Below, piece by piece: positions 63,715 through 63,847 of a stretch of DNA of 64,000 bases. Position numbers and translations under genes: made by a program. Source of the stretch: Candidatus Omnitrophota bacterium (GTDB lineage Bacteria > Omnitrophota > Gorgyraeia > Duberdicusellales > 4484-171); NCBI GenBank assembly GCA_043815185.1, contig JBDRJF010000024.1, positions 128,533-192,532 of the forward strand. The letters run 5' to 3'. The notes beneath the pieces are model-generated. The model was not told where the DNA came from and did no database searches. It was given only the letters and a program-made list of their open reading frames with translations. Within the stretch, counting starts at the first letter, position 1. Every line of letters begins with the position of its first letter.

Positions 63715-63847
63715 TGGTTTTATCTTGTTTTCAGGCTACGAGGGCAATAAGAGGTTGTTGCTTTGATAAAGTTATCTTGGAATCAATATTGTCCTTCGGA
63801 CTGCTTCGGCTGACGCCGAAGATTGATTGCAAGTCCTGTATCGCCCA
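63715..63847 (+). repeat. tRNA-trailing structured module D3 (ends in a copy of the tRNA-Val(GAC) 3' end)
   Basis: Reads ggaatcaat..gtcc-ttc-ggac..cttcggc-tgac-gccgaag..attgattg caagtcctgtatcgccca, with 18 nt identical to the tRNA. Confidence 0.72.

Follow-up and report, generated by a model that had tools for sequence, protein, structure and literature searches.

We analysed a 64,000-nucleotide stretch of a Candidatus Omnitrophota genome (contig JBDRJF010000024.1, positions 128,533 to 192,532; hereafter the window), near the end of which a small structured element follows a tRNA-Val(GAC) gene. The tRNA gene occupies 63641-63714 on the plus strand and is functional as judged by ARAGORN and Rfam (tRNA, 69.6 bits). 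It has no encoded CCA, and TGG stands directly 3' of it. Nucleotides 56-73 of the tRNA form an upstream repeat, A (caagtcctgtatcgccca, 63697-63714). It is followed on the same strand by a spacer, B (63715-63775), a three-way-junction core, C (63776-63833), and a downstream repeat, A-prime (63830-63847, again caagtcctgtatcgccca), which starts at the T-loop base C56 and matches tRNA nt 56-73 at 18/18 positions. Spacer B opens with tggttttatcttg, matching the left end of the wider family described below (T[AG]GTTTT[AT]T), and the rest of it is unique to this locus. Spacer length at this copy is 64 nt, and the insert is 115 nt long. The initial annotation of this DNA had reported the exact 18-nt repeat of the tRNA-Val 3' end, which we recovered, and had overlooked that this repeated end is one of two direct repeats bracketing an insert.

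The core folds on the plus strand from an outer helix, cttg (63776-63779) paired with caag (63830-63833), the latter being the first four bases of the repeat. A G63780.G63829 mismatch separates the outer helix from a foot helix, aatcaat (63781-63787) paired with attgatt (63822-63828). Within it stand hairpin A, gtcc-ttc-ggac (63791-63801), and hairpin B, cttcggc-tgac-gccgaag (63804-63821), with AGATTG at 63820-63825. The helix, both hairpins and AGATTG had all been described in the initial annotation, and all were found in the sequence where it had placed them. The foot-helix variant of this copy, GGAATCAAT/ATTGATTGC, preserves every pair around the G.G mismatch. The core (63776-63833) has a predicted energy of -24.3 kcal/mol (z = -4.2), and only 1 of 1000 shuffled sequences folded equally well; for the whole 133 nt the signal is weaker (z = -2.4; 5/200 shuffles equally good). 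An upstream arm complementary to the repeat was no better at this copy than in shuffles, 126 of 1000 of which were equally good.

To place this copy in a family, we used a covariance model, R2, made from 42 copies, all outside the window. R2 matches 63775-63833 with 48.9 bits (E 6.9e-11); with the result against shuffled controls, this independent recovery bears out the structural homology to the family that the initial annotation had proposed. The independent model found 69 copies in 55 loci altogether. When one genome per species was scanned by pattern, 93 places came up, with true two-hairpin modules in ~31 loci, and a metagenome scan added ~24 further loci. Covariance models were used instead of a loose structure-descriptor scan, which was too unspecific (121 matches vs 39 in shuffles). 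Of the ~31 loci, nearly all are from metagenome-assembled genomes labelled Candidatus Omnitrophota or "uncultured Planctomycetia", both of the Planctomycetes-Verrucomicrobia-Chlamydiae (PVC) group. At L008 and at L022, the genome collection has runs of N that coincide exactly with tandem units, and these arrays are partly unreadable.

Several known kinds of sequence were considered and rejected. In Rfam 15, only tRNAs and a 6S RNA were found in the window at gathering score, with no match to the module; in a scan of 63100-64000 at E <= 10, nothing overlapped the core, and the unit is not tRNA-like to Rfam. These scans exclude a known RNA family. A phage or plasmid attachment (att) site was rejected after a scan of viral contigs gave 18 matches, none with the two-hairpin core, which we took as chance matches. 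An uptake-sequence-like word was rejected as well, the foot-helix 9-mers being confined to modules within the window. Full-text literature searches on Omnitrophota tRNA-gene repeats, on miniature or partial-tRNA elements and on the homing of CRISPR-associated transposons (CASTs) turned up no account of the element, and the family is previously undescribed. It consists of non-coding inserts of ~120-140 nt in the 3' ends of tRNA genes, each bracketed by nt 56-73 of its tRNA as direct repeats. A structured insert family at tRNA T-loops, polymorphic in occupancy and with a junction conserved by structure, is established.

Every copy folds as a three-way junction. The foot helix has the consensus GGATSCAAT/ATTGSATAC and a purine-purine mismatch, which is a conserved G.A, replaced by G.G in the Val(GAC) copy and in L022. 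Compensated foot-helix variants occur in L022 (GGAGGCAAT/ATTGCCTGC) and L075 (GGATCCAGC/GCTGGATAC). Hairpin B always starts with CU and ends with AG, and stacks onto the foot helix at its 3' strand. Among the variable positions of 26 distinct hairpin-B stems, 96.7% form Watson-Crick pairs, compared to 50.6% when partners are permuted (highest value in 1000 permutations, 67%). Pairs also covary in the foot helix and in its outer extension: the three bases 5' of the foot helix change with T-loop nt 57-59 of the repeat, giving UA, CG, GC and AU pairs. This covariation supports the proposal of the initial annotation that the architecture is kept despite differing hairpins, as structure over sequence. 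The Val(GAC) copy, with its foot helix, mismatch and hairpins A and B, has the full family structure; it is not the exceptional case it had been taken for. Hairpin A varies from 3 to 11 bp and falls into two classes, short as at Val(GAC) and long ("cggttgagg"), each present in several genomes, and the short "gtcc/ggcc-TTCG" hairpins are the commonest family type.

The purine-purine mismatch and the cUNCGg loops (cUUCGg/cUGCGg) belong to the tRNA-sense strand, and the models score this strand at ~60 bits vs ~17 bits for the reverse. G.U pairs are rare among the ~910 pairs, with 15 on the tRNA-sense strand vs 9 on its reverse complement. We set aside an inference of strand from such wobble pairs, as these counts are uninformative and cUUCGg on one strand is cGAAg on the other.

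We measured 43 tRNA-linked units, which share one order: tRNA, locus-specific spacer, three-way junction, and a copy of the same tRNA's nt 56-73. The same junction was found at >15 tRNA species, and it begins 62-75 nt 3' of the tRNA. The left edge of the repeat is C56 in 43/43 units, directly after G53-T54-T55. The right edge mostly lies at nt 73-74, with identity over 18-19 nt in 17/43 units, 20-26 nt in 13 and 30-55 nt in 6, and the repeat is free of mismatches in 30/43. The left end of the insert, T[AG]GTTTT[AT]TTT, lies directly 3' of the tRNA and is conserved across tRNAs and genomes. It attaches after nt 73, or after the CCA in L017, L025 and L067. CCA is encoded in 4/43 module-bearing tRNAs vs 13/42 module-less tRNAs. 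The remainder of the spacer is locus-unique, in that blastn returned orthologues only and never other copies of the same genome; spacer B of Val(GAC) had no match to any other locus. In about half of the units, a spacer arm is complementary to the repeat, the cognate pairing being best or second of ~25 in 11/27 units. By position, too, the Val(GAC) copy belongs here, as it follows a same-strand tRNA, carries the 18/18 repeat and pairs cttg with caag.

The repeat is decayed or interrupted in the window Leu-GAG unit and in L049, L052 and L065. In the last three (L049 ~6850-6880; L052 ~3225-3260, minus strand; L065 ~5900-5935, minus strand), G+C-rich palindromes such as GCCTGCCGGCAGGC split the downstream repeat, and these may be a second type of small insertion. 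Separately, the unit at L103 (~1400-1670) follows a tRNA-Arg-like 3' half, before which stand >250 nt containing GAGAAAGTCCGG. From its sequence this region looks like an intron-containing tRNA gene; ARAGORN found no tRNA there, and Rfam gave nothing at gathering score.

Which part of a unit is the insert was settled by comparing empty with filled sites. In the window, the tRNA-Val(TAC)-thrS locus is module-free and CCA is encoded. The initial annotation had raised whether this tRNA carries a module in relatives; it does so at the tRNA-thrS locus in L031, L057/L139 and L126, the L031 locus reading tRNA without CCA, spacer, junction, repeat, CCA, ~40 nt and thrS. The tRNA-Pro(GGG) site is empty in L073 (CCA-aggtagcgaaaagggg...ATG) and filled in L067 and L092, where a homologous flank of CCA, ribosome-binding site (RBS) and ATG (CCA-ag.tag...aaaggggg...ATG) follows A-prime. 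In L116, tRNA-Val(GAC) and tRNA-Asp are only 27 nt apart with no module between, and this empty-site flank (…AAATTTGACT…) is homologous to the sequence after the window repeat. These comparisons show spacer plus junction to be the insert and the downstream tRNA end to be original. The working tRNA is completed by the upstream repeat; the end that the gene first had, now displaced, is the downstream repeat, together with the native CCA and flank.

Occupants of a single site can differ widely. The window and L021 have a common Cys - Leu(TAA) - Val(GAC) - Asp cluster, in which the Leu(TAA) spacers are 89% identical, hairpin B has been replaced and a change in hairpin A is compensated. At Val(GAC), the two tRNAs are 100% identical and the flank after the repeat, including a promoter, is near-identical, vs 49% identity for spacer B and 55% for core C. 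L025 has a third version, making three unrelated versions at this tRNA, besides the empty site of L116. In L022, L065 and L132, two or three units stand in tandem, with two differing units behind one tRNA-Lys in L132. Three units (window Leu-TAA, L021 Val and L067 Pro) have an A-prime that departs from the tRNA at nt 57 or 59, and in these the outer helix fits A-prime and not the tRNA; selection acts on this helix, or else that stretch of the repeat arrived with the element. In L064, a terminator hairpin within spacer B differs from the native terminator after the repeat.

Across the 64 kb, R2 found exactly six copies at E <= 1.4e-7, with the next match at E 0.03. Five follow same-strand tRNAs (Leu-GAG, Glu-TTC, Arg-CCG, Leu-TAA and Val-GAC), so that a module stands behind 5/8 tRNA genes of the window, and one is solo; none is present after tRNA-Val(TAC) or tRNA-Cys. 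On the plus strand, the unit after tRNA-Leu(TAA) (tRNA 63371-63458) spans 63459-63597 (40.7 bits), with its core at 63519-63583 and A-prime at 63580-63597 (cgagtcccgcccccggca). This A-prime departs from its tRNA at nt 57, and the outer helix compensates. The unit after tRNA-Leu(GAG) (tRNA 9336-9421), also on the plus strand, spans 9422-9567 (core 9482-9550; 50.7 bits), and its decayed A-prime (9547-9564) is followed by CCA. On the minus strand, the unit after tRNA-Glu(TTC) (tRNA 49020-49096) spans 48872-49019 (core 48886-48953; 36.8 bits), has the variant foot helix tgtatgc/gcataca, and its A-prime runs from 48889 down to 48872. The minus-strand unit after tRNA-Arg(CCG) (tRNA 40939-41011) spans 40802-40938 (core 40816-40875; 43.3 bits), with A-prime from 40819 down to 40802 and an orthologous unit in L032.

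The solo unit of the window lies at 22347-22467 on the plus strand (core 22410-22467; 48.2 bits) and has no tRNA. It starts at 22347 with the family left end (tagtctttc) and is antisense to both neighbouring open reading frames (ORFs), of 113 aa (21992-22333) and 66 aa (22480-22680) on the minus strand, which we take by eye to be rplT and rpmI, respectively. Each of ten solo copies runs antisense to both flanking genes, sitting between co-directional genes on the opposite strand, and they have the usual left end 65-69 nt before the junction. Flanking repeats were sought at seven solo copies and were clear in L016, marginal in L037 and undetectable in five. We also noted that the triplet after the junction is CAT in 7/10 solo copies (L048, L050, L076, L087, L106, L115 and L129). 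On the strand of the flanking genes this gives an ATG opening a short ORF (MY[AP]I...) into the module, in L050 with GGAGG 7 nt upstream. Two further units, at L133 (~5480-5680, minus strand) and L051 (1-420), are without an upstream tRNA; in L133, TGTATAAT stands ~95 nt before the junction, and what comes after the junction resembles a tRNA only in part.

The clear case, L016, is a unit lying antisense to mutM, at the 5' end of that gene, with a 35-nt flanking repeat that spans the RBS and codons 1-7. Compared to the real start, the repeat has synonymous differences only (ATGCCAGAGTTACCAGAAGTT vs ATGCCTGAACTTCCAGAAGTT). The insertion point, between GGTCTC and AACTTC, resembles the T-loop of tRNA-Phe, GGTTC followed by AACTCC. 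About 100 nt past this module, at ~6790-6820, lies a right-truncated second module of which hairpin A and the foot helix's 5' strand are left (GGATCTAATATAGGCCTTCGGCGG).

Downstream of the Val(GAC) repeat, a consensus sigma-70 promoter lies at 63857-63885 on the plus strand (TTGACA 63857-63862, 17 nt, TATAAT 63880-63885). It scored 12/12 in our scan and begins 9 nt past the repeat, just as the initial annotation had it. The promoter stands upstream of a partial tRNA (63931-64000, plus strand; Rfam), a tRNA-Asp by synteny with L021, and it lies in the native flank, outside the insert, and is conserved in L021. From this arrangement the initial annotation had suggested that the module marks a transcription-unit boundary. 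The consensus promoter and its conservation in L021 speak for such a role, but no terminator was found at this copy and other copies lie inside clusters or operons. The Leu(TAA) copy, for instance, precedes tRNA-Val by 41 nt (by 17 nt in L021), and the gap holds no promoter. The solo copies sit between co-directional genes, and in L116 the tRNA-Val and tRNA-Asp genes, 27 nt apart, are without a module. A boundary role is only locally plausible, and the module is not a general boundary marker. Two further candidates were rejected. A scan of 63715-63860 found no terminator-like site (G+C-rich hairpin plus T run), and the complementary upstream arm at Val(GAC) was not significant, which removes an intrinsic terminator at this copy. 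A promoter made of the foot-helix TTGSAT and a CATATT after the repeat fell under the scan threshold and is not general.

Elsewhere in the window, dnaN (54251-55348, minus strand; Pfam) adjoins a dnaA-sized ORF (55443-56777, minus strand), and the GC skew changes sign between ~56 and 60 kb; a replication origin probably lies within the window. A 6S RNA gene (15440-15598, minus strand; Rfam 49.5 bits, barely over gathering score) and a PAC2-family ORF (14430-15470) overlap at the 5' end of the latter. Pfam gave no match at all for a 411-aa ORF (41536-42771, minus strand) that lies two genes upstream of tRNA-Arg(CCG).

We tentatively favor, at somewhat less than an even chance, the reading that the module is a non-autonomous insertion cassette, spread by recombination and specific for the tRNA T-loop, by a mechanism that we infer as follows. 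The folded junction on the tRNA-sense strand, as single-stranded DNA or RNA, would be the selected part, probably as a handle for a candidate trans-acting protein. The cassette would enter at the universally conserved T-loop, between GGTT and CRANYCC, and would carry or regenerate the tRNA 3' end, so that the gene survives. The repeat pair would permit its loss via repeat-repeat deletion, and it could be regained or swapped by recombination with DNA of other lineages, the conserved tRNA and the repeat acting as homology arms. The outcome would be homing-like spread, with one cassette lineage per tRNA species. This reading would account for the per-tRNA spacer lineages, for repeats that look young beside old spacers, for xenologous-looking repeats and for unrelated versions at one site. 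The cassette is probably co-transcribed as a tRNA 3' trailer, which RNase Z would release, because most module-bearing tRNAs have no encoded CCA and U comes next. In support of the cassette reading stand the covariation and the independent model, the empty and filled sites, the turnover at Val(GAC), the repeat geometry, the outer helices that fit A-prime, the synonymous mutM repeat, the L064 hairpin, the tandem arrays and the lower share of CCA-encoding genes among module-bearing tRNAs.

Several observations weigh against this cassette. Ten window ORFs (346-493 aa) were tested, of which nine had ordinary Pfam matches and one had none; there was no recombinase, transposase, reverse transcriptase or TnpB among them and no mobility gene of any kind, the ORFs of the other loci being unscreened. 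No cargo stands between tRNA and junction in ~55 loci, whole genomes not having been searched. Copies in the same genome share only the junction and ~10 nt of left end, and their unrelated spacers are unlike a recently active transposable element of the miniature inverted-repeat type (MITE); from their sequences they fit long residence under functional selection. The perfect downstream repeats (30/43) could reflect selection on the repeat, not youth. How a cassette gains the 3' end of a new tRNA species is unexplained by the mechanism, and five of the seven solo copies tested have no detectable flanking repeat. The G.U counts give no strand signal, so they do not discriminate between RNA and DNA.

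The main rival, which we consider unlikely yet the most credible of the alternatives, is that the module is a host-functional RNA, a B-C-A-prime transcript kept behind the tRNA for a cellular role. It might act as a processing or insulating structure for RNase Z or RNase P, as a stabilizer or weak terminator, or as a mimic or decoy of the acceptor and T end. Selection would then keep the repeat identical to the tRNA, so that perfect repeats fit here too, as do the compensatory changes of outer helix and repeat. Spacers are unique to each locus, yet junction, left end, spacer length (62-75 nt) and repeat are conserved; the cUUCGg/cUGCGg loops and the conserved purine-purine mismatch lie on the tRNA-sense strand; and roughly half of the units have the repeat-pairing arm (11/27 with the cognate best or second). 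The L133 unit, which has no tRNA and has TGTATAAT ~95 nt upstream, also points this way, as do the ten solo copies, whose antisense placement in host operons is expected if the sense orientation hampers transcription. However, many tRNAs are module-free, a tRNA that carries a module in one genome can lack it in a relative, and three unrelated versions occupy one site. The repeat has decayed or been interrupted in four units (window Leu-GAG, L049, L052, L065), the Val(GAC) copy shows no terminator signature, the mutM and solo copies are unrelated to tRNA, and Rfam sees no tRNA likeness even at E = 10.

A second alternative is a guide-RNA-like module, in which the junction is the scaffold and the next 18-20 nt are a guide to the tRNA gene beside a "GTT" protospacer- or target-adjacent motif (PAM/TAM; G53-T54-T55). 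This scaffold-5'/guide-3' polarity, as in the CRISPR RNAs (crRNAs) of Cas12k and the omega RNAs of TnpB, would direct a protein for homing or retention of the cassette. We regard this as improbable, and give as little weight to its extension, a minimal selfish cassette with the protein in trans, homing under RNA guidance across most tRNA genes of a phylum. The repeat does start at C56 after GTT in 43/43 units, while the scaffold-side copy is preceded by ATA, not GTT. Cas12 and TnpB enzymes cut ~18-21 nt from the PAM, and the upstream repeat usually ends 18-21 nt past GTT. The repeat is perfect in 30/43 units, and the mutM target is T-loop-like (GGTCTC before AAC). CASTs, moreover, home beside tRNA genes through delocalized crRNAs (PMC11656645). 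Against a guide, no effector gene occurs among the window ORFs tested and none was seen adjoining any copy. The conserved scaffold is only ~55 nt, and the spacer that would complete it is not conserved; omega RNA and single-guide RNA scaffolds exceed 100 nt. There is no insertion at a fixed distance in native flank, since the native flank follows the repeat. Half of the units pair the "guide" with the upstream arm, and solo copies are without a matching target.

Two further readings are weaker than the guide. One, which we find slightly more doubtful still, is a retro-element-like insertion, in which the opposite strand begins with a structure at its 5' end and finishes with an A-rich 3' tail (…AAATAAAACYA) against the tRNA end, and the variable-length target duplications are as after target-primed reverse transcription. 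It would suit the conserved T-rich left end directly after tRNA nt 73, 74 or 76, the variable duplication with one fixed edge, the right-truncated copy in L016, and L017, where CCA stands at the upstream repeat only. However, no reverse transcriptase was seen in the ORFs tested, spacers are not common between copies, and in 6-7 units CCA is only downstream, with the junction at nt 73 even where CCA is encoded, which argues against priming by mature tRNA.

Least probable of all are scars of integrase islands, that is, attL-attR remnants resembling cis-mobilizable elements (CIMEs) left by cargo deletion from tRNA-integrating elements: the repeats from T-loop to tRNA end, with a restored tRNA upstream, a displaced end downstream and the sharp left and variable right edge typical of tyrosine-integrase att sites of the T-loop sublocation, would fit, but spacer length is tightly held (62-75 nt in 43 units), one junction serves >15 tRNA species, the covariation indicates selection for intrastrand folding, unexpected for double-stranded arm sites, no copies lie on viral contigs, and none of the window ORFs tested is an integrase.

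If the favored reading of a mobile cassette is right, a phylum of uncultured small-celled bacteria carries an overlooked element behind many of its tRNA genes. This element would exploit the T-loop common to all tRNAs and mend the gene that it interrupts, as a compact target-restoring insertion, and it could yield a new recombinase or RNA-guided activity whose recognition module is very short and defined by structure. For annotation, it yields partial tRNA genes, alters CCA encoding and puts structured RNA in tRNA trailers. If it is instead an RNA that serves the host as a trailer, it would still form a new RNA family, one that retains a second copy of each tRNA's 3' end, and no function is known for such a copy.

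The nearest known kinds are tRNA-integrating islands, casposons, IS200/IS605-TnpB and CAST systems, and structured intergenic repeats. We did not assign the element to islands, casposons, CAST systems or known intergenic repeats, each of which has a defining feature that is missing here, nor to IS200/IS605-TnpB elements, which it fits in part. Functional tRNA 3' trailers such as the sponge RNA 3'ETS-leuZ, and tRNA-like 3' structures such as mascRNA, resemble the module in a position directly after a tRNA in one transcript and in possible release by tRNA-processing enzymes. Unlike the module, each of these is a single RNA tied to its locus; the tRNA end is duplicated by none of them, and none is repeated behind most tRNAs of a genome. 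With REP/BIME/REPIN, Correia, BOX/RUP and ERIC sequences and MITEs, the module shares being small, non-coding, multicopy, intergenic, foldable and strain-variable. It differs in having no inverted termini with a short fixed duplication, in having only the junction in common between copies, in being nearly exclusive to tRNA T-loops and in its tRNA-specific repeat. Its ends, T[AG]GTTTT... and ...AGATTGCATA, are not inverted, its repeat is 18-55 nt long and its spacers are unrelated, none of which is MITE-like.

Casposons integrate next to tRNA genes, tied to the segment encoding the T-loop, and in Aciduliprofundum boonei the target duplication is 15 bp and overlaps the tRNA by only 5 bp (PMC5137440). 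They are large, with Cas1 and PolB-like polymerases, terminal inverted repeats and a 14-15-bp duplication (PMC5137440). The likeness lies in the T-loop link, an unusually long duplication at the tRNA 3' end and one edge set by the tRNA. The module, however, has neither genes nor inverted termini, and its repeat lies inside the tRNA (nt 56-73) and is 18-19 nt or more, not 14-15 bp.

IS200/IS605-TnpB elements and the RNAs of type V-K CASTs resemble the module in their asymmetric, structure-defined ends, strand-specific folding, and a scaffold followed by a target-matching flank beside GTT. The GTT motif and the order of scaffold and flank are present here, but IS200/IS605 elements have no flanking repeat, their omega RNA scaffolds are larger than the 55-nt conserved part of the module, and no TnpA, TnpB, Cas12k or Tns gene was seen in the ORFs tested. 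CASTs home to tRNA genes (PMC11656645), and a tRNA match beside a GTN PAM, as a V-K CAST guide would have, is found in 43/43 units, as a sequence observation only. Neither cas12k, tnsB, tnsC nor tniQ was found in the window ORFs tested, and the insertion is not ~60-66 bp past the PAM. Fixed-distance insertion of the CAST or Tn7 kind was rejected, as the downstream repeat leads into the native CCA, the native flank and the next gene.

Elements that integrate at T-loop att sites in tRNA genes, and CIMEs, share with the module direct repeats of the tRNA 3' end that start in the T-loop, restoration of the gene upstream, a displaced end downstream, a variable right edge and arrays. The direct repeats are present here; no kilobase cargo was seen in ~55 loci and no integrase among the window ORFs tested, a search that was not genome-wide. 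Unlike these elements, the module is a gene-free unit of ~120-140 nt, in which one folded junction, with covariation pointing to a single-stranded structure, serves >15 tRNA species.

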